Shown here: positions 8,053 to 47,578 of the stretch, piece after piece
Layout of the letters: each line of letters begins with the position of its first letter
Numbering within the stretch: the first letter of the stretch is position 1
Source of the DNA: an uncultured bacterium
GTDB lineage: Bacteria; Patescibacteriota; Kazan-3B-28
DNA: 64,000 bases
NCBI GenBank assembly: GCA_963695435.1
Contig: OY968788.1
Location: 349,456 to 413,455, forward strand
Direction: 5' to 3'
Program-made: the position numbers and the translations under genes
Notes under the pieces: model-generated
Told to the model about the DNA's origin: nothing
The model's database searches: none
Seen by the model: the letters and a program-made list of their open reading frames with translations, nothing else

Positions 8053-8241
8053 TTAGCGAGCCAAGAACTGGAATGCCTGATATACCAAAAACACCGGCCA
8101 GACGAGAGCCTTCAGAAAGCCGAGCACTCCAACTCCAAAACTTGTCGCGGTACTAATGAAATATATTGCCGCTCCGACAAGCCCCAGACCGTAAATAGCA
8201 CCAGAGGGGTGACCACAATGCTGCATCATTTTATTCTTCAT
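8053..8241 (-). CDS. small two-helix glycine-rich membrane protein
   Basis: 62 aa, GLGLVGAAIYF and FGVGVLGFL GxxxG-rich helices; first gene of the minus-strand 3-gene unit. Confidence 0.4.
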   Translation of the reverse strand: MKNKMMQHCGHPSGAIYGLGLVGAAIYFISTATSFGVGVLGFLKALVWPVFLVYQAFQFLAR

Positions 8242-8316
8242 AGGATTACTCCGTGAAAAATTATATTATCTATCCGTAATTTATTATACAGCTTGGTTCG
8301 GAAAAGCCCCAGGGGA

Positions 8317-8346
8317 GAAAGCTTGTCTGGGGGTGGGTTTTGGGTG
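8317..8346 (+). promoter_or_regulatory. candidate sigma70 promoter TTGTCT-N18-TATAGT for the ABC transporter operon (near-leaderless)
   Basis: hexamers read directly; ATG at 8361 is ~15 nt downstream of -10. Confidence 0.35.
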
Positions 8347-11423: not shown

Positions 11424-11987
11424 TTAGCTACTGGCCATCATATTATTGAGAGCCTCTAAGACTTGAGGGAGCTCGAGCCACCCTTCATGCCCGCTTAGAT
11501 GGCCACCATTGGGTACTATCACCAGTTCGGCATCTAACTTATCTTTTATTAGGTTTGCGTTTTCCATCGGTACAGACGGATCATTGTCGCCATGAATTAC
11601 TACAATCTTCAAATTGTAAGATTTTATTTTTTCAAAGTTGAACGGGTCATTCAAAAATCTATCGACTTTATCTTTTCCTATCGGAATTACTGGTCCCGCA
11701 ACAAACACGAGCCCAGCCACACCATGAATGTTATCCGCAGATTCTAAATAGCGTAAAATTGCGGGTACTCCCAAACTGTGCCCTACTAGATAAATTTCGT
11801 CTTGGGCGCCTTGTTCCACTTGTCTTGCAATTTCTTTCCCCCATTCTTCTGGCGAAGGATTCCATGGATTAGGCATTGGAAGCGCGCAGGCATAAATATC
11901 CTGCTTATCTAACTCAGCCATTAGCCATGGCCGCCAACCTCCATTGGGGCTACCTTCGTAACCGTGGATTATGAATACTTTTTTCAT
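11424..11987 (-). CDS. alpha/beta hydrolase (RBBP9/YdeN-like serine hydrolase)
   Basis: 187 aa, nucleophile elbow GHSLG, later D and H (IHGDNDPSVP ... GGHLSG). Confidence 0.65.
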   Translation of the reverse strand: MKKVFIIHGYEGSPNGGWRPWLMAELDKQDIYACALPMPNPWNPSPEEWGKEIARQVEQGAQDEIYLVGHSLGVPAILRYLESADNIHGVAGLVFVAGPVIPIGKDKVDRFLNDPFNFEKIKSYNLKIVVIHGDNDPSVPMENANLIKDKLDAELVIVPNGGHLSGHEGWLELPQVLEALNNMMASS

Positions 11988-12000
11988 CTTTAGAATTTTC

Positions 12001-12074
12001 TGGCAGGCCTGGAGGGAATCGGACCCCCGCCTTCGGTTTTGGAGACCGACGAGCTACCACTACACTACAGGCCT
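12001..12074 (-). tRNA. tRNA-Trp (anticodon CCA), 3' CCA encoded
   Basis: Hand-folded: acceptor AGGCCTG/CAGGCCT, anticodon stem TCGGT/ACCGA, loop CTCCAAA; strong similarity to E. coli tRNA-Trp; D-stem has one T-T mismatch. Confidence 0.8.
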
Positions 12075-12314: not shown

Positions 12315-13097
12315 TTATGCTTTTTTAATTTGTAGGAAGTCTAATTCAACTGGAGTCTCGCGACCAAAGATGCTGACCAGCACCTTGATTTTCCCTTTTT
12401 CTTCGTCAATTTCATTAACTGAACCATCGTAGTTTTTGAACGGGCCGTCTTTGATGTGTACCAAATCGCCGATATTTACATCAATCTTATACTTTGGTTC
12501 TTCCACATCCATCCGCTTGAAGATACCCTTCAATTCAAAGTCGGAAACAGGAACAGGGACTGTACCAGAACCGATGAATCCTGTTACATTTGGCGTGTTG
12601 CGAACAACATACCAAGAATCTTCCGTCACTTTCATATTGACCAACACATAACCGGGGAACATTTTCTTTTCCACGATTTTGCGTTTGCCGTTCTTGATTT
12701 CAATTTGATTTTCTTTCGGGACCAAAACATCAAAAATTTTGTCTTGCATATCGAGCGAAGAAATTCTTTGCTTTAAACTATCAGACACAGCATCTTCATA
12801 GCCGGAATAAGTGTGTAAAACATACCACTGCCCCGGCCATTCCTTAGAAAGAGAAGCTGCTGTATCGGCAACTGGAGTCGGCTCTTCGTCGGTCTTTTCT
12901 TCAATTTCTTCCTCAATTTCATCAGCTGGTAATGCAGCTTGCTCAACCGATTCTTCAATTTCAGCTAATTCACCCTTGCCCTCTTCTTCTTCAACCTCGG
13001 CTTCAGCTAAAGACTCTTCCACGGTTTCTGGAGTGTCTTCTGCCTCTACGGGTGTCTGTTGGTCGTCTGATTGTGGTAAGTTGTCGTTTTCTTCCAT
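12315..13097 (-). CDS. nusG: transcription antiterminator NusG with ~85 aa acidic N-terminal extension
   Basis: NGN ([12 protein letters not shown]) and KOW ([19 protein letters not shown]) regions; E/D-rich N-terminus. Confidence 0.9.
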
Positions 13098-13153: not shown

Positions 13154-13405
13154 TTATTGAGTTACTGGGGTAGCTGTAACATCACCGAGGCTAGTGCTGG
13201 CTGTCGGCGTATTCTTTTCAGCCAAGATAGTCAGCCACTTGATTCCGGTAGTCAAACCGTAGTCAGCCAATGCTACATAAACCATAAACAAAATTGACAC
13301 ACCTAACACTATCAAAGTCAGATTGATAGCAGCTTGGCGAGTCGGCCAAGTGACCTTGGCTAATTCAACCCGAGCTTCGTGGAAAAATTTTAGAATACCC
13401 TTCAT
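13154..13405 (-). CDS. secE: preprotein translocase subunit SecE
   Basis: FFHEARVELAKVTWPTRQ followed by single TM helix. Confidence 0.85.
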   Translation of the reverse strand: MKGILKFFHEARVELAKVTWPTRQAAINLTLIVLGVSILFMVYVALADYGLTTGIKWLTILAEKNTPTASTSLGDVTATPVTQ

Positions 13406-13423
13406 ATGTTGCGATTATTAGGT

Positions 13424-13517
13424 GGAGGTAAGAGCAGTGAGCTTGTTTCGACTTGTCGAAATGGGCTTTGCCCACGAGCGTTGAGGGAGGGAAATACCTC
13501 GTCCTTCCCTCAAGAGC
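13424..13517 (-). repeat. X-element copy 1 (structured ~95-nt repeat) between rpsI stop and secE start, sense orientation
   Basis: shares CGCTCGT, GGGC-AAA-GCCC hairpin and CAAGCTCACTGCTCT with copies at 35106-35200 and 24262-24360; stems differ but remain paired. Confidence 0.6.
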
Positions 13518-13931
13518 TTAACGCTTGGAGAACTGTGGAGCGCGACGAGCGCGTTTGAGACCAAACTTTTTGCGTTCCTTTACGCGAGCATCACGAGTAA
13601 GTAATCCTGCTTTTTTCAGTGCTGTCTTTAGATTAGCATCAAACTCCACTAAAGCCCGAGCAATTCCGTGACGCACGGCATCTGCTTGAGCTGCCATACC
13701 GCCTCCGTGGACATGTGCAGAAACATCAAAATCTTTTTGCATCCCAACAGTAGTCAATGGCGAGAGAGCAATTTCAACTAAATCTTTAGGACTGAAATAA
13801 TGACTGCCGACTTGGTCGTTGATTACCACAATTTTGCCGTCACCCTTGTAAAGACGGACTTGAGCAGAAGCGGTCTTGCGACGACCGACTGCGTAGAAAT
13901 ATTTACCAGAAAGTTTTAGTGTTGGTTCCAT
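13518..13931 (-). CDS. rpsI: 30S ribosomal protein S9
   Basis: C-terminal GLKRARRAPQFSKR. Confidence 0.95.
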   Translation of the reverse strand: MEPTLKLSGKYFYAVGRRKTASAQVRLYKGDGKIVVINDQVGSHYFSPKDLVEIALSPLTTVGMQKDFDVSAHVHGGGMAAQADAVRHGIARALVEFDANLKTALKKAGLLTRDARVKERKKFGLKRARRAPQFSKR

Positions 13932-16828: not shown

Positions 16829-17218
16829 TTAGGTCTTATCCCCTGTCTTCTTACGACCGCTACCCATCGTTACTCGTTTGCCTCGCTTGGTGCGAGCATT
16901 GGTGCGAGTACGCTGACCGCGAACCGGAAGTTTTTTGATATGGCGGAGACCGCGATATGACCCCAGATCTTTCAATCGTTTGATATTCATTGCAATTTCT
17001 CTGCGCAGGTCGCCTTCAACCAGCAATTCTTTTTCAATCAACGCCCGCAGACGATTTTCTTCATCGGGAGTAAGATTCTTGACCTTGGTCGCGGCATCAA
17101 TGTTGGTTTGTTTCAGGATTTGAGCACTCAAACTTCTGCCAAGACCGTAAATTCCAGTCAGAGCGATATCAATTCGCTTGTCATTGTTCAAGTTGATTCC
17201 GGCAATTCTGACTACCAT
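16829..17218 (-). CDS. rpsM: 30S ribosomal protein S13
   Basis: [10 protein letters not shown] ... [19 protein letters not shown]. Confidence 0.95.
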
Positions 17219-17220
17219 AT

Positions 17221-17334
17221 TTATCCTTGGCGTTGTTTATGCTTTTTTGTTGAACAAATCACGCGTACCACGCCCTTGCGTTTGATGACGCGGCAGTTTT
17301 TGCACATTGGTTTTACTGAAGGCCTAACTTTCAT
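17221..17334 (-). CDS. rpmJ: 50S ribosomal protein L36 (C+ zinc form); true start is internal Met of the 67-aa track ORF
   Basis: [37 protein letters not shown]. Confidence 0.9.
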
Positions 17335-17462
17335 GTCGTCTAAATTCTTTCGCGTTAACGGAAAGTCGCATCCGCTTCTTTCCTTTTGGGGCTCAAGAAT
17401 TTCTCCTCTCCCCAAGCCAAACACTTCGTTGGTTTGCCTCGGGGGCCCCGATAGAATATTAA

Positions 17463-17687
17463 TTACTTATGTCTATAAGTGATTCTTCCTTTTTCGATAT
17501 CGTAAGGGCTCATTTCGATTCTAACTTTGTCGCCCGGCGCGATTTTGATGTAGTTCATCCGCATCTTGCCGGAAATGTGAGCCAAAATAACATGACCATT
17601 GTCCAGCTCTACTCTGAAACTGGCATTGGGCAGGGCTTCTTTGACGACCCCGTCCAGCTCAATAACTTGTTTTTCGAAGGTGTTCAT
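17463..17687 (-). CDS. infA: translation initiation factor IF-1
   Basis: S1-like fold, [19 protein letters not shown]. Confidence 0.95.
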
Positions 17688-24261: not shown

Positions 24262-24360
24262 AGTGCCTCTCGAGAGGGCAACCAAGAGGTTTTCCTCTCG
24301 ACGCTCGTCAGCAAAGCTGAGTTTTGGTGAACCAAAACCAAGCTCACTGCTCTCCCTTCC
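24262..24360 (+). repeat. X-element copy 3, inverted (antisense to operon), filling the 126-nt rpsQ-rplN spacer
   Basis: + strand reads CCTCTCGAGAGG...CCTCTCGA-CGCTCGT-CAGC-AAA-GCTG-A-GTTTTGG-TGAA-CCAAAAC-CAAGCTCACTGCTCT. Confidence 0.6.
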
Positions 24361-24385
24361 TTTAAATATAGTAATTGTTCTCATA

Positions 24386-24658
24386 TTACAAATCTGCTGA
24401 TGTTATTTGATTCTTACCCGGCATAATCTGAATAACTTCCCAATGTTTTGTCTTACTCAACGGTCTGGTTTCACCAATCGATACCAAGTCGCCGACTTTG
24501 ACTTTGTTCTCGGCATCGTGGACAGCAAAACGCTTAGTCACCCGAACCCGTTTTTTGTAAAGCGGATGAGCGACATAAGTGTCCACCTTCACAATGACGG
24601 TTTGTTCACCGGCACGGGAAATGGTTACGCCAATTTTTTGTTGTCTAATTTTCTCCAT
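24386..24658 (-). CDS. rpsQ: 30S ribosomal protein S17 (start at internal Met MEKIRQQ; track ORF extends upstream into rpmC)
   Basis: conserved S17 core. Confidence 0.85.
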   Translation of the reverse strand: MEKIRQQKIGVTISRAGEQTVIVKVDTYVAHPLYKKRVRVTKRFAVHDAENKVKVGDLVSIGETRPLSKTKHWEVIQIMPGKNQITSADL

Positions 24659-24893
24659 GAGAGATTGCCTCCAAAATAATTTTTTCATTGAGAACCGTTT
24701 CCATTTGAGCAATTGAGTGGCGGGCTTTACGCAATTCCTGATGATTCTTGAGTTTGCCGATAGTTAGTTGGTTGCGCAAATCCTGCAATTTTAATTGAAT
24801 CTCGGCCAAATCTTTTTTCAGTTTGGTGATATCCAGCTTGCGATATTCAGAAATAGTTGTTTTTTCCTTAGCCATATTAAACCTTAGTAACAA
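24645..24893 (-). CDS. rpmC: 50S ribosomal protein L29
   Basis: 82 aa coiled helix protein between rplP and rpsQ. Confidence 0.9.
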
Positions 24894-29203: not shown

Positions 29204-29255
29204 ATAAATCCTTCTTCTGGTCCCATTAGACGGGACGCGGAAGTAATAAACAGAG

Positions 29256-29317
29256 TCTAGAGAGTAGAGATGAGAGAATAGAGATTGGCTCTACACTCTC
29301 GTCTCTCTTCTCTAGAG
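29256..29317. repeat. TAGAG-unit hairpin repeat copy A (28-nt purine arm, loop ATTGG, 29-nt pyrimidine arm) between rpsJ and rplC
   Basis: TCTAGAGAGTAGAGATGAGAGAATAGAG / CTCTACACTCTCGTCTCTCTTCTCTAGAG imperfect inverted repeat. Confidence 0.6.
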
Positions 29318-29320
29318 CTT

Positions 29321-30954: not shown

Positions 30955-31080
30955 AAATCCCTCTCAAAAACTTCTTATAGATTAGTATAGGTGTAAAAAA
31001 GATACTTTTAGAAAATACCTAAATTTGGAGAATAAAGCAAGGGTTTTTTCTGGGAAAATCGCCCATAGGAGGGGCTTCAG

Positions 31081-31118
31081 ATATAAAAGTGGGGCGGCGG
31101 GTCTTCCCGCTGCCCCAC
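31081..31118 (-). terminator. strong intrinsic terminator GTGGGGCAGCGGGAAGACCCGCCGCCCCAC + UUUU after plsC-like gene
   Basis: read on minus strand. Confidence 0.7.
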
Positions 31119-31135
31119 AAAATGGGCTTCGCCGA

Positions 31136-31858
31136 TCAGTCATACCAGGCTCTCATATCCTTTTTACTTGGCTGGAGCTCTTCCGGCAACATGGCGCGTA
31201 TCCGCCATGCAAGTCTACGAACCTCTCTCTTGAGAACATCCCTGGGGATGGTTTCTCCTAGATTGGCTCTGTAGCTAATCCGATAAGGAGCCCCGAAGAC
31301 GATCCTGATTTGGGACGGCCGGGGAAACTTACAGCCCTTCGGCAGGGCTCGGTGACTTCCAACAATGACGGCTGGTACGATGTGGCACCCACTGATAATA
31401 GCTGCTTTGACCGCCCCCGATCTACACCGCTCCATTCGGGGAGTATCACTGCGCTTCCCTTCTGGGAACATCATGATGGTTTCCCCATTTTTGAGAAGAT
31501 CGAGGGTGTACTCGAAGGCTGCCTTGGGGCTGCTTCGATGAAGTGCAACGGCTCCCAGCCCGATAATTACCCAAGCGAGTAGTTTGCTCAAACAGCTCTT
31601 CCCTTGGAAGAGTTCTATTTTGGCAATAACCCTGACCCTTCTGGGTATAGATATCCCAACCAATGGCGGATCAAGGTAGCTAATATGATTAGCTACCACC
31701 AGTACGCCTCCAGATTTAGGGACTTGAGACAGCCCGACAATCCGAAGCCTAAACCAGATCACTGCGCACACCAACACGATGGTGCGGATGCTCCAGTGAA
31801 AGATTATTTGCCACACCGACATAGGTCGGTGTGTCGAGTGTTTGCCTGACGACAACAT
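31136..31858 (-). CDS. 1-acyl-sn-glycerol-3-phosphate acyltransferase family (PlsC-like), ~52% GC
   Basis: motif I VVANHISYLD (HxxxxD), motif III FPEGKRS. Confidence 0.75.
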   Translation of the reverse strand: MLSSGKHSTHRPMSVWQIIFHWSIRTIVLVCAVIWFRLRIVGLSQVPKSGGVLVVANHISYLDPPLVGISIPRRVRVIAKIELFQGKSCLSKLLAWVIIGLGAVALHRSSPKAAFEYTLDLLKNGETIMMFPEGKRSDTPRMERCRSGAVKAAIISGCHIVPAVIVGSHRALPKGCKFPRPSQIRIVFGAPYRISYRANLGETIPRDVLKREVRRLAWRIRAMLPEELQPSKKDMRAWYD

Positions 31859-32069: not shown

Positions 32070-32801
32070 CTAGTCGAGCGAATGAACACCCCTCTCTTCT
32101 CCTATGTTGGCATAGAGGGCAATGCGAATGCATCCCGCCATGTGGTGGCCCACCCTTTCGTCTAAATAAAATCTTTCCGAGATCCAGTGGCACTCAAATG
32201 AGAAAACAGTAGCTGGGTATGCTCTAGAGAGACTAAGTGCATATCTCCTATTTTCTTCGTCTCTGTAGATAGTACCCAAGAAGATTGTTGGTACATCTTC
32301 ATAACCGCTGTCTCTCGGGATGAATCTTTGGTCATGGAGCAGGCCCTGGAGTACATTAGCATTAGGAAACATCCGACCAGCCAGTGTTTTCTTGACTTCA
32401 TCGAGATTGAAACAGAATCCTGGTCGTTTTTGGTCGGGTGGATAGTACAAATCAATCTGAAACGGATTCCACTCCCACTTACCCATCGAGGTGTCGTGGC
32501 TCTCAATCCTACCCTTGATATGAAGCCTATCTACAGGGGCGGGAGCCGCACAGTCAATCACCAAACTCGAGCGCTTCTTGGTTCGTTTGGAGGGAAGCAT
32601 GGGTTTCAGTAATTTGGCGCAAACTGGTTCGAGGGGTTTGCCCTCACGAATAGCTTGCAGGATTGGCTTTGCTTGGACAAAGTATGTTGCGGTGTACTTA
32701 CCGTCACGGGTTCCTTTTGCGATAGCAAGTAGGGTGCCAATAACCCATTCCGCCCATTCTGATAGCGTAGCGGGGCTAACCGCTTTCTTTTTCCTGAACA
32801 T
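32070..32801 (-). CDS. hypothetical protein (243 aa), ~50% GC, no recognisable motifs
   Basis: long ORF flanked by terminators and the 29-bp direct repeats. Confidence 0.5.
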   Translation of the reverse strand: MFRKKKAVSPATLSEWAEWVIGTLLAIAKGTRDGKYTATYFVQAKPILQAIREGKPLEPVCAKLLKPMLPSKRTKKRSSLVIDCAAPAPVDRLHIKGRIESHDTSMGKWEWNPFQIDLYYPPDQKRPGFCFNLDEVKKTLAGRMFPNANVLQGLLHDQRFIPRDSGYEDVPTIFLGTIYRDEENRRYALSLSRAYPATVFSFECHWISERFYLDERVGHHMAGCIRIALYANIGEERGVHSLD

Positions 32802-33007: not shown

Positions 33008-35080
33008 TTAGCCTTTTTTGGCGACCAGCTCGGCCTGAATGTTGGCAGGCACCTTCTCATAGTGGTCGAATTCCATTGTAGAGGAGGCACGGCCTTGGGA
33101 CATCGAGCGGAGGTTGGTGGCATAGCCGAACATTTCGGCCAACGGCACCAGTGCCCGAATCACCTTGGCATTAGCTCTATCCGTCATTCCTTCAATGCGC
33201 CCGCGCTTGGAGTTCAAATCTCCCATCACATCACCAGCATATTCTTCAGGGGTGACCGCTTCTACTTTCATAATAGGTTCCAACACAACGGGATTTCCTT
33301 TGCGCACACCTTCCTGCAAACACATACTCCCTGCGATTTGAAACGCCATTTCGTTGGAGTCAACTTCATGATACGAACCGTCAATCAAAGTGGCTTTGAT
33401 ATCTACAACAGGATAACCGGCGATAACACCGCGAGTAAGCGAAGATTCCACACCTTTTTGAACTGCGGGAATATATTCACGAGGAATAACACCACCAACG
33501 ATTTTATTAACAAATTCAAATCCACCAGTCTCAAGAGGCTCAAACTTGATAACCACATGTCCGTATTGTCCGCGACCACCGGTTTGTTTGATGTATTTCG
33601 TTTCGTTGACTGCTTCTTGCGTAATGGTTTCGCGATAAGCCACCTGCGGTTTACCGATGTTGGCTTCAACTTTGAACTCGCGTTTCATGCGGTCAACAAT
33701 AATATCCAAATGAAGCTCACCCATTCCTTCAATAATTGTTTGGCCGGAATCAGTATCGGTGTGCACACGGAAGGTCGGATCTTCTTCGGCTAATTTACCA
33801 AGAGCAATGGCCATTTTTTCTTGGTCAGCTTTTGATTTTGGTTCAACCGCAATAGAAATAACAGGCTCGGGGAAAGTAATCGATTCCAAAATAATCGGCT
33901 TGTCTCCATCACAAAGGGTGTCACCAGTGGTCACTTCTTTCAGCCCCACCATAGCGCCGATTTCACCTGCAAAAATTTCATCCACTTCTTCGCGGTGATT
34001 ACTGTGCATCCGCAAAATTCGGCTAACTCTTTCTTTTGTTCCTTTTGTAGCATTAGTCACATACGAACCAGATTTCAATGTTCCTGAATAAACACGGAAA
34101 TAAATAAGTTTTCCGACAAACGGGTCAGTGGCAATTTTGAAAGCTAGCGAAGAAAATGGTTCAGAGTCACTGGCTTCGCGAATAATTTCTTCACCGGTTT
34201 TTGGATCTAATCCTTTAACCGGAGGAATATCCAATGGATTCGGAAGATAATCAACAACCGCGTCCAAAAGTTTTTGAACACCTTTATTTTTCAAAGCGGA
34301 ACCGCACATTACCGGCACAAATTTGCCGGCAATAACAGCTGCTCGCATTGCTTTTTTTAATTCATCATTGGTAATAGCTTGGTCTGCCAAAAACCGCTCC
34401 ATTAAAGCGTCTTCGGTTTCAACAATTTTTTCCAGCATTTTGTGTCGATATTCTTTTACCAATTCTTTCATATCGTCTGGAATATCTGTTTCTAAAACAT
34501 CTTTACCTAAATCATCTTGATAAAAATAAGCTTTTTCGGTAATCAAATCGACTAACCCTTTGTAAGTTTCAGCGGCACCAATAGGAAGCTGAATTGGAAC
34601 GGCATTAGCGCCTAATCTATCCAAAATAGTTTTGTAGCAAAAATAAAAGTCCGCGCCCATTCGATCCATCTTGTTCACAAAACAGATGCGTGGGACGTGG
34701 TACTTGTCCGCCTGACGCCAAACAGTCTCGGATTGTGGTTCCACACCCGCGACACCGTCAAACACCACTACACCGCCGTCTAGTACGCGGAGACTGCGTT
34801 CTACTTCAACTGTGAAGTCAACGTGTCCGGGGGTGTCGATAATGTTGATGCGGGAATCGTTCCAGAAACAGGTGGTAGCGGCGGAAGTAATTGTAATTCC
34901 GCGTTCCTGTTCCTGTTCCATCCAGTCCATAACCGCCTCGCCTTCATGAACTTCACCAATCTTGTAAGTCTTTCCAGTATAAAAAAGAACTCGTTCTGTA
35001 ACGGTAGTTTTTCCGGCATCAATATGAGCAATAATGCCGATGTTTCTGGTTTGAGCTAGTGAATATTGTCTTTCTGACAT
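33008..35080 (-). CDS. fusA: elongation factor G
   Basis: 690 aa, [17 protein letters not shown]. Confidence 0.97.
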
Positions 35081-35105
35081 TCCGTTTACATTTATTCTTT
35101 GAAAG

Positions 35106-35200
35106 GGAAAAAGAGCAGTGAGCTTGTTCTGCTGTGAGCAGAATGGGCTTTGCCCACGAGCGTCGAGAGAAAACCGTAGGTGTTCTCTCGAGACTCTCTT
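35106..35200 (-). repeat. X-element copy 2 between rpsG stop and fusA start, sense orientation
   Basis: TCGAGAGA...TCTCTCGA-CGCTCGT-GGGC-AAA-GCCC-A-TTCTGC-TCACA-GCAGAA-CAAGCTCACTGCTCT. Confidence 0.6.
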
Positions 35201-35674
35201 TTAGAATCGCGAGAAGTGTGCGAACGCTTGGTTCGCTTCCGCCATGCGGTGTGTTTCTTCCTTTTTCTTCATTGCATCACCGGTACCGTTGTAAGCATCA
35301 ATCAATTCTTGAGTTAATTTTTCGGCGATTGGTTTGCCTTTGCGAGCACGAGCAACTGTCACCAACCACTTCAAAGCGATAACAATTCTACGGTCAGCAC
35401 TAACTTCGGTCGGCACCTGCAAGTTAGAACCACCCATACGACGAGCTTTCAACTGAACTGATGGAGCAATATTGTGAATTGCTGTATCAAAAACTTCTAC
35501 TGGTTCTTTACCCAATTTTTTGGCGGCGGCTTCCAGAGCCGTATAAACCGCTCTTTCGGCGACAGTTTTTTTGCCGTTCACCATTACTTTATTAATAAAC
35601 CGACCAATCATAACATTGCCGTATTTGCGGTCGGGTTCGTGAAGATTATTAAATTTGGTTTTTCCTCTCGCCAT
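35201..35674 (-). CDS. rpsG: 30S ribosomal protein S7
   Basis: 157 aa. Confidence 0.95.
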   Translation of the reverse strand: MARGKTKFNNLHEPDRKYGNVMIGRFINKVMVNGKKTVAERAVYTALEAAAKKLGKEPVEVFDTAIHNIAPSVQLKARRMGGSNLQVPTEVSADRRIVIALKWLVTVARARKGKPIAEKLTQELIDAYNGTGDAMKKKEETHRMAEANQAFAHFSRF

Positions 35675-44959: not shown

Positions 44960-44980
44960 ATTTCCTCCTTTGTTTAATAA

Positions 44981-45057
44981 CTAGAGATTAGAGCATAGAG
45001 TGTAGAGAGTAAGAGCAGAATTTTTGTAATCTCTCTTCTCTCATCTCTATTCTCTGG
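44981..45057. repeat. TAGAG-unit hairpin repeat copy B
   Basis: CTAGAGATTAGAGCATAGAGTGTAGAGAGTAAGAG ... CTCTCTTCTCTCATCTCTATTCTCTGG. Confidence 0.55.
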
Positions 45058-45076
45058 CTTCCAGTATACCTGTTTT

Positions 45077-46345: not shown

Positions 46346-46408
46346 ATCGTCAGAATGGACTCGACCTTACGCTAACACCTTCGACAGGCTCAGGGTTGCT
46401 TTTAGTCT

Positions 46409-46490
46409 CGTCATTCTTCCTCTCAAAATCACAAACACTCGCTTCGCTCCTTGGTTTGTGATTTTGTGTTTGGGTTTTCAATCTCCGTTT
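46409..46490. repeat. Z-element copy 1: AAAATCACAAAC-N17-GTTTGTGATTTT hairpin module upstream of tRNA cluster 1 / downstream of dCMP deaminase
   Basis: ~90% identical over ~55 nt to 47515-47570. Confidence 0.6.
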
Positions 46491-46517
46491 TGTTATTTGT
46501 TATTTGGTTATTGGTTA

Positions 46518-47488: not shown

Positions 47489-47490
47489 AT

Positions 47491-47575
47491 TGTCATTCTG
47501 CTGTACAGCAGAATTCCTCTCAAAATCACAAACAGTCGCTTCGCTTCTTGGTTTATGATTTTGTATTTTAAACTA
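47491..47575. repeat. Z-element copy 2 plus 18-bp palindrome TTCTGCTGTACAGCAGAA abutting tRNA-Leu(AAG) 5' end
   Basis: see copy 1. Confidence 0.6.
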
Positions 47576-47578
47576 CAC

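Follow-up and report, generated by a model that had tools for sequence, protein, structure and literature searches.

A stretch of 64,000 nucleotides (nt) from an uncultured bacterium of the Patescibacteriota (lineage Kazan-3B-28; contig OY968788.1 of assembly GCA_963695435.1, positions 349,456 to 413,455), hereafter the window, carries three copies of a structured intergenic repeat to which we give the working name X. X is genuine and represents an element family not described before; it is narrowly distributed, in a few Saccharibacteria, has a low copy number and is a discrete non-coding interspersed insertion rather than an ancestral part of the ribosomal operons in which it lies. In our preferred reading, to which we assign a rough probability of 0.45, X is an interspersed insertion element of the hairpin type that would be read as a folded single strand, moved by a putative factor and retained by selection. 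We prefer this to an operon-native regulatory RNA because X is a discrete insertion, was apparently lost seamlessly in one relative, occurs in both orientations and has stems that are Watson-Crick paired on both strands; its invariant unpaired motifs, a decaying copy and a clade in which other spacer elements come and go argue in the same direction.

Layout and covariation of X

The three window copies, numbered 1 (rpsI/secE spacer), 2 (rpsG/fusA) and 3 (rpsQ/rplN), share a common layout when aligned in one orientation, as the initial annotation of this DNA had recognized, and Pfam matches support the neighboring genes that it had named (S9 and SecE, S7 and EF-G, S17 and L14) as well as the location of X inside core ribosomal operons. 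The shared order (stem 1, block 1 or CGCTCGT, the 5-bp hairpin U-NNGC-AAA-GCNN-A that forms stem 2, stem 3, a 15-nt block 2 and a pyrimidine-rich tail) also stands. However, copy 3 runs against both transcription and the other two copies; the genes of the region are all on the minus strand, so that copies 1 and 2 read as sense and copy 3 as antisense. The size first proposed, about 95 nt, is too short, since X spans 108-116 nt and its AT-rich tail ending in CATA belongs to the element. Stem 2, described as 4 bp followed by a single A, does form a hairpin, but the T of CGCTCGT pairs with this A, which brings it to 5 bp. The features are as follows.

13406-13513, minus strand: X copy 1, full, 108 nt, same sense as the operon, between rpsI and secE
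13481-13513, minus strand: copy 1 stem 1 (by folding), TTGAGGGAAGG...CCCTCCCTCAA
13474-13480, minus strand: copy 1 block 1, CGCTCGT, whose last T closes stem 2
13462-13474, minus strand: copy 1 stem 2, TGGGC-AAA-GCCCA
13446-13461, minus strand: copy 1 stem 3, TTTCGAC-AA-GTCGAAA
13431-13445, minus strand: copy 1 block 2, CAAGCTCACTGCTCT
13406-13430, minus strand: copy 1 tail, pyrimidine-rich TACCTCCACC, then an AT-rich part ending in CAACAT that abuts the secE ATG
35081-35191, minus strand: X copy 2, up to 111 nt, same sense as the operon, 3' boundary without empty-site support
35163-35191, minus strand: copy 2 stem 1 (by folding)
35156-35162, minus strand: copy 2 block 1, CGCTCGT
35144-35156, minus strand: copy 2 stem 2, TGGGC-AAA-GCCCA
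35127-35143, minus strand: copy 2 stem 3, TTCTGCT-CAC-AGCAGAA
35112-35126, minus strand: copy 2 block 2, CAAGCTCACTGCTCT
24270-24385, plus strand: X copy 3, full, 116 nt, antisense to the operon, boundaries placed within 1 nt by the empty site of a close relative (L035)
24270-24301, plus strand: copy 3 stem 1 (by folding)
24302-24308, plus strand: copy 3 block 1, CGCTCGT
24308-24320, plus strand: copy 3 stem 2, TCAGC-AAA-GCTGA
24321-24338, plus strand: copy 3 stem 3, GTTTTGG-TGAA-CCAAAAC
24339-24353, plus strand: copy 3 block 2, CAAGCTCACTGCTCT
24354-24385, plus strand: copy 3 tail, CCCTTCCTTT plus AAATATAGTAATTGTTCTCATA

Copy 1 is preceded by the rpsI stop codon (13518-13520) and GCTC and followed by the secE ATG (13403-13405). 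Copy 2 starts 9 nt after the rpsG stop codon (35201-35203) and is followed by the fusA ATG (35078-35080), and copy 3 is flanked by the Shine-Dalgarno/ATG side of rplN and by the rpsQ stop codon (24386-24388). The longest open reading frame (ORF) at 24386-24712 is over-extended, S17 homologues having 87-90 amino acids (aa) and not 108.

Blocks 1 and 2 and the heptamer GCAAAGC are identical in all three window copies. Block 2 occurs exactly three times in the window, at the positions listed, with no further site even when three mismatches are allowed; the chance expectation for a given 15-mer is about 1e-4 in 128 kb of two-strand sequence. Folding of each copy beats that of shuffled sequence with both RNA (z -3.1 to -4.9) and DNA parameters (z -3.2 to -5.1), and with the latter each strand forms all three hairpins. 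Stem 1 occupies the very 5' end, and the last 47 nt, consisting of block 2 and the tail, are unstructured. Pairing between the two blocks was rejected, being impossible in window-type copies and possible only in a divergent copy from a relative, L032 (GGCGGU/GCCGCC).

For covariation, seven distinct copies, three from the window and four from relatives, were aligned to a covariance model. Standard pairs fill 89.7% of the pair cells, compared with 40-54% when the 3' partners are slid, changes on both sides are seen in 16 of the 23 pairs, and none of 500 shuffles reaches the observed pairing and covariation values. Stem 2 exists as GGGC/GCCC, CAGC/GCTG, TGGC/GCCA, CGGC/GCCG and GAGC/GCTC, and stem 3 differs in sequence in every copy. 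The frozen unpaired blocks and covarying helices first noticed in three copies are statistically clear now that homologs have been added. The stems are almost purely Watson-Crick, with some palindromes perfect through the loop (for example, GTTCGTCAGCTGACGAAC in the relative L034), and G·U accounts for 5 of the 156 forward-strand pairs and 4 of the 159 reverse-strand pairs. Because G·U pairs are rare and symmetric and both strands fold, neither strand stands out as the RNA strand. Conserved loops and covarying stems also mark hairpin-type mobile DNA, which calls for caution; they are not specific to functional RNA, because they are documented for REPIN mobile DNA as well (PMC3337134).

As for known families, X matched none, as the initial annotation had anticipated. 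Scanning the whole window against Rfam 15 at gathering thresholds returned just RNase P RNA and tRNAs, and scanning each copy at E<=10 gave only chance microRNA or snoRNA matches of 8-14 bits; this covers hammerhead, twister, pistol and hatchet ribozymes, ribosomal-protein leaders and small RNAs. There is no tRNA or tmRNA at the copies according to ARAGORN and no sigma-70 promoter-like site was found in X. A -10-like TATAAT/TATATT in the tail of some copies was dismissed, having no -35 partner and being missing from other copies. The lineage does have sigma-70-like signals, since a region upstream of tuf is promoter-like and conserved in three species (window 30955-31135, L025 2382-2953 and L032 3179-3580; AAAAACCCTTGCTTTA...AATTTAGGTATTTTCTAAAAGTATC), and X has nothing comparable. 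One terminator-like match, in stem 2 of copy 3, is missing from the other copies. The reverse strand of window-type copies shows a Shine-Dalgarno-like tract followed by GTG-AGC-TTG, of which the L032 copy lacks the GTG; a coding sequence or leader peptide was rejected, since the stem lengths differ by non-multiples of three and frames and stops are not conserved. Mimicry of 23S rRNA was likewise rejected: a 9-nt identity (AGCUCACUG) with what we take to be the GTPase-associated centre has no closing helix and is plausible by chance. Pairing of the blocks with the RNase P RNA or tRNAs of the window amounts to just G·U-laden matches of 8-10 nt, and a G4-type priming signal (three hairpins plus CTG) was set aside, the copies lying on both strands of one replichore segment.

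Distribution, insertion and loss

An exact scan for the two blocks in 185,579 species-representative genomes gave two real matches, L001 and L003, both in Saccharibacteria/Saccharimonadales metagenome-assembled genomes (MAGs); a third was a chance match in Prevotella coding DNA. L003 is a soil MAG and has the same blocks as the window. Synteny-guided look-ups added an intact copy (L034), the divergent L032 copy and a degenerate one (L044). L001 and L025 represent one species, of which L044 is a further locus, and L046 is a locus of the L032 species. A second covariance model that included the divergent copy detected no more copies in 186 kb of related loci, a relaxed-pattern scan of metagenomes gave 21 matches, all by chance and all in coding DNA, a scan of viral contigs gave one chance match, BLAST against plasmids and phages gave no match to X, and a literature search with the block sequence as a string returned no paper. 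The Logan assembly of ERR12035938, apparently of the same species, is broken inside X copy 1, with one contig stopping 66 nt past the rpsI stop codon and another starting 42 nt ahead of secE, a hint that this genome has more, closely similar copies in other places.

At junctions where the window has X, relatives have 0-16 nt. In L032 and L033, whose flanking genes are 74-79% identical to those of the window at the nucleotide level, rpsQ and rplN are joined by an ATGA stop/start overlap without X, and the rpsG/fusA spacer measures just 9-15 nt. At rpsI/secE, the empty site in L046 is a 4-nt spacer, TAA-AGTC-ATG, and the filled site in the window reads TAA-GCTC, then TTGAGGG...CAACAT (108 nt), then ATG. 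The reverse situation exists at rplQ/rplM, where the L025 species (L044) has an X copy and the window a spacer of 23 nt; this length takes into account that the L13 ORF (13937-14377) is over-extended and most likely starts at its second ATG (CATATGCCGAGTC).

The most informative empty site is found in L035, the closest relative found (92.7% nucleotide identity, four-fold-site difference 0.26). At rpsQ/rplN, TTTGTAA is directly followed by GAGGCACTCTATG in L035, and in the window the same two sequences are separated by 116 nt. Since the flanks are the same, X is a discrete insertion extending from the first base of stem 1 to ...TCTCATA. It has no terminal inverted repeats, its 5' ends (TCGAGAGG and TTGAGGG) not being complementary to its 3' ends (...TCTCATA and ...CAACAT), and there is no target-site duplication of 2 bp or more at rpsQ/rplN (L035 against the window, at most one ambiguous nt, an A) or at rpsI/secE (L046 against the window). 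An apparent TATGA duplication at rpsQ/rplN was dropped once the truly empty L035 site was compared. The 5' flanks of X end in CCTC, GCTC, AGTC, TTAC, CTCC and CAAA, with C at position -1 in five of the six and no fixed word among them; only two of the boundaries are fixed by empty sites.

The flanking genes give the tree ((window, L035), L025), L034. The window, L025 and L034 have the rpsQ/rplN copy in the same orientation and with clearly related stem 1 sequences, and L035 has none. Because L035 is nested among X-bearing lineages in this tree, its empty site is best read as a seamless loss.

Orientation, selection and competing explanations

X sites are junctions between tightly packed co-directional genes, and over the six independent sites three copies are forward and three reverse relative to the mRNA.

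rpsI/secE, window: forward
rpsG/fusA, window: forward
fusA/tuf, L032: forward
rpsQ/rplN, window, L025 and L034: reverse
rplQ/rplM, L044: reverse
HD-domain gene/tRNA-Met, L003: reverse

According to the initial annotation, random orientation combined with terminal inverted repeats and target-site duplications would have indicated a selfish MITE (a miniature transposable element with inverted repeats). Orientation is indeed random, whereas the inverted repeats and duplications are missing.

Could X instead be a cis-acting RNA module of polycistronic mRNA? It might then serve in processing or stability at former operon boundaries, as a spacer structure against Rho polarity or as a translation-initiation platform, with the conserved blocks bound by, for example, an RNase or a ribosomal protein. 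All six sites are between co-transcribed genes of highly expressed loci, several of them at classical operon boundaries (S10/spc, alpha/rplM, rpsI/secE and fusA/tuf), and the strong covariation, the purifying selection on the blocks of the orthologous rpsQ/rplN copy and the AT-rich tail abutting a secE ATG that has no Shine-Dalgarno sequence are in keeping with such a role. However, three of the six copies give the complement in mRNA (GAGC for GCUC, UUU for the AAA loop), with the same bases conserved, and because half of the copies present complementary sequence, a single protein-binding RNA function cannot serve both orientations. G·U pairing is nearly missing and without strand bias, Rfam has no match, and close relatives lack X at the same junctions. 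A cis-acting RNA is therefore unlikely. The selection on structure put forward by the initial annotation finds support in the blocks (see below); the operon-embedded functional RNA that it implied does not, given the absence of X from relatives, its two orientations, its rare and symmetric G·U pairs and the decay of one copy.

A narrower RNA-level proposal, that X is a Nus-factor (boxA-like) antitermination site where NusB/NusE, recruited by CGCUCGU and by the GCUCUU that ends block 2, would let RNA polymerase read through into secE-nusG and fusA-tuf, is highly improbable. Copies 1 and 2 read UGCUCUUA and UGCUCUUUUU, which resemble the boxA core GCUCUUUA, and both are upstream of long downstream units, one including nusG. 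Yet this likeness to the boxA core covers just 6-7 nt. Moreover, GCUCUU is found in the sense strand of copies 1 and 2 only; GCUCUCCC (GCUCUC) takes its place in copy 3 and its orthologues, which are antisense to the operon, the L032 copy reads GCUCCUC, and half of all X sites are in the wrong orientation.

The presence of both orientations in the window, two sense and one antisense, would rather suit a model in which copies in different mRNAs pair in trans through their blocks (a perfect 15-nt duplex plus 7-9 nt), coupling decay or translation of different ribosomal-protein transcripts while the stems just keep the blocks exposed. Mutual complementarity would explain why the blocks are identical and the stems free. 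In a variant, X would act on its own as a small RNA and mask Shine-Dalgarno sequences with its CU-rich tail; in the forward direction the tail looks like an anti-Shine-Dalgarno sequence (ACCUCC, CCCUUCC), in reverse like a Shine-Dalgarno sequence. We consider trans pairing quite unlikely, since the L001/L025 species and L003 have one intact-block copy each in the whole-genome pattern scan and the second copy of the L025 species is degenerate and in the same orientation, so that no partner is visible. Against the variant, neither a promoter nor a terminator was found, and because X begins with stem 1, a promoter upstream of it would have no space.

What X looks like when unconstrained is illustrated by the degenerate L044 copy at rplQ/rplM, with blocks changed to CGCTCAC and CAAGCTCGCTACCCT, a TAA loop and stem 3 lost. 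The rpsQ/rplN copy behaves differently. Between the window and L034, which was found via S17 and not via X and is thus free of ascertainment bias, there are no differences in the 22 block positions or in the 13 positions of stem 2, about 9% differences in stem 1, about 28% in the tail and about 50% in stem 3, where pairing is kept. Four-fold sites of the flanking genes differ by 50%, and the chance that 22 neutral sites remain unchanged is about 0.5^22. Because all 22 block bases were kept while half of the four-fold sites changed, the blocks of this copy are under purifying selection, and X is not simply a decaying relic.

This contrast of rates within one orthologous copy is what disfavors the view that X copies are inert relics, with stems kept paired by templated palindrome correction and blocks alike through recent common origin. 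The almost pure Watson-Crick stems, some of them perfect palindromes including the loop, the visibly decaying copy and the relatives without X would all suit such relics. Against this, with neutral divergence at about 0.5, the blocks are intact at 22 of 22 positions in a copy whose tail and stem 3 diverged by 28-50%, and the soil MAG L003 has the same blocks, which makes inert relics very unlikely.

We thus return to the insertion element. X would be read in its folded single-stranded form, in which three short Watson-Crick hairpins, equal on either strand, display the invariant unpaired blocks (with three GCTC motifs) and the GC-AAA-GC hairpin tip. A putative trans-acting factor, by analogy with REP/REPIN-RAYT and IS200/IS605 most plausibly an HUH/tyrosine-type enzyme acting on single-stranded DNA, would read this form and might also move or excise X. 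At least the rpsQ/rplN copy would then be kept by purifying selection on its blocks, which would therefore imply either a host-level benefit or a persistent, REPIN-like association of element and host. Recognition by a factor, HUH-type mobilization and the reason for host-level retention are the steps that we infer here.

Several points weigh against this reading. The copy number looks low, with one exact-pattern copy in each of two species-representative genomes, and a Pfam scan of the window ORFs detected no transposase, HUH or RAYT gene. No consistent target tetranucleotide was seen in the flanks, a hairpin of the kind that IS200/IS605 ends have is missing from the final 47 nt or so on the 3' side, and CGCTCGT and CAAGCTCACTGCTCT share GCTC as a direct repeat that is not complementary, unlike inverted REP pairs. 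An element that is excised when intact should leave behind old copies with damaged blocks, so that perfect blocks point to a host-level function. Finally, all sites are in highly expressed translation loci, possibly through sampling bias, which leaves room for a role at the RNA level.

In a possible but doubtful alternative, X would be no passive passenger but a domesticated, functional single-stranded nucleic-acid module: a three-hairpin scaffold under purifying selection at translation-operon junctions in Saccharibacteria, with a dedicated putative protein partner reading the GCTC motifs and the GC-AAA-GC tip. Were this true, X would either be the first of a novel class of structured RNA/DNA element or serve as substrate for a novel kind of seamless cut-and-paste machinery of very small genomes, and, if the partner protein exists, X would point to it. 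In the tiny, packed genomes of Saccharibacteria and other Patescibacteria, one would expect interspersed repeats to be few and not to last long. X enters the most conserved and most highly expressed operons, where it splits stop/start overlaps without abolishing them, and it can apparently leave without a scar and can decay, with unpaired bases frozen while half of the synonymous sites changed. It offers a handle on how tiny genomes tolerate or use mobile DNA.

X is one of several spacer-filling elements in this clade, others of which come and go between species 91% identical. Long hairpins, GA-rich in the 5' arm and CU-rich in the 3' arm (AAGCTCTAGAGAAGAGAGACGAGAG...CTCTCATCTCTACTCTCTAG), occupy the S10/L3 spacer (29204-29320, z -5.0) and the region upstream of a LemA-family gene (44960-45076, z -3.5) of the window; the former is nearly identical in the L025 species, and the two appear to form a second structured spacer family. 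L025 has three copies of an element of about 150 nt (8172-8328, 11904-12073 and 17176-17500, at L22/S3, S8/L6 and L36/S13), built as AAATCAGCAAATCAGCAAAT...ATCGCAGGC-AAA/TTT-GCCTGCG...CATTTGCAGATTTTTT, with a possible TAAAG duplication at the S8/L6 flanks; the same spacers measure 0-5 nt in the window. Small elements (L025 148-308, 6183-6265 and 11422-11495; L044 11660-11790) share a plan of purine-rich repeats (AATGA, GAGTCGC), a GC hairpin, CCACC/CCTC and pyrimidine/AT-rich repeats (TTCTTAATTC) and stand in place of the native spacers at rpsG/fusA, L23/L2, S14/S8 and nusG/rpmG, the first being a junction where the window has X. Similarly, a repeat GTATCAAGTTGCCAGTGTCAGGTGTCA...CTTGATACTTGATAC, whose arms are largely G·U-paired on the sense strand, lies at S13/S11 (L025 17891-17984) and fills rpsI/secE in the L025 species (L044 10415-10502), where the window has X copy 1.

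Elsewhere in the window, two copies of a segment of about 55 nt, AAAATCA(C/T)AAACCAAG(G/A)AGCGAAGCGA(G/C)TGTTTGTGATTTTGAGAGGAA, with a hairpin, lie just upstream of two tRNA clusters (46346-46517 and 47489-47578, minus strand). An acyltransferase gene (31136-31858) and a 243-aa ORF without a Pfam match (32070-32801) separate fusA from tuf, an interval that in L025, L032 and L033 is non-coding spacer only. NusG (12315-13097) has 260 aa, with an N-terminal extension of about 85 aa before the NGN domain. Just downstream of nusG in the L032 species, L046 11859-15591 encodes a 551-aa serine recombinase (Resolvase plus Zn_ribbon_recom), an HTH gene and unassigned genes, and looks like an integrated element.

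Comparison with known mobile repeats

Classical bacterial MITEs and structured repeats, at about 100-150 nt, are in the size class of X. Correia/NEMIS, ERIC, RUP, BOX and the Rickettsia RPE are, like X, non-coding and strongly structured, vary in presence among close relatives and insert within or between transcription units, including operons, with which they are co-transcribed. However, classical elements keep their stem sequences between copies and X keeps only its unpaired parts. DDE-type MITEs have terminal inverted repeats and target duplications (TA for Correia); X has neither, although it shares with them multiple copies, presence/absence polymorphism and occurrence in both orientations.

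The attC sites of integrons resemble X in that structure is kept over sequence, with few conserved unpaired or core bases, in insertion and excision without duplication and, as we propose for X, in being recognized as folded single strands. Yet attC sites consist of a single long, bulged hairpin, carry RYYYAAC/GTTRRRY cores and are found in cassette arrays next to intI, whereas X has three independent hairpins, no RYYYAAC...GTTRRRY pair and a location in ribosomal operons.

Closer parallels exist with elements moved as single strands. The IS200/IS605-derived PATE are moved as single-stranded DNA by TnpA-Y1 and recognized via hairpins and short single-stranded motifs; the two ends of IS200/IS605 elements carry similar subterminal hairpins, and insertion takes place 3' of a fixed tetra- or pentanucleotide. 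PATE and X are alike in having no terminal inverted repeats, no target duplication and clean excision (for X, the L035 loss), and X may be recognized in the same manner. However, X has a terminal hairpin at one end only, the other being AT-rich and unstructured, and the flanks compared show no consistent target. For the REP family, RAYT is an HUH-Y1 transposase whose cognate single-copy gene is flanked by the repeats. REPIN/REP-RAYT elements are, like X, short, non-coding and extragenic, occur in both orientations without classical target duplication, and combine conserved motifs with variable, always paired hairpin sequence (89.7% paired in the stems of X). REPINs have conserved REP motifs and a spacer that is never identical between copies and yet always forms a hairpin (PMC3337134), and excision events and long-term vertical persistence are documented for them. 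They differ from X in consisting of two inverted REPs that form one long hairpin, instead of three separate local hairpins, and in being present in tens to hundreds of copies per genome, compared with 1 to at least 3 for X, which also lacks the GTAG-type head of REPs. Because X has no inverted REP pair or 3'-end hairpin and shows no fixed target word in the flanks compared, we do not count it as a member of the REPIN or IS200/IS605 groups; by analogy, it would nonetheless work like REP/REPIN-RAYT and IS200/IS605-derived elements.

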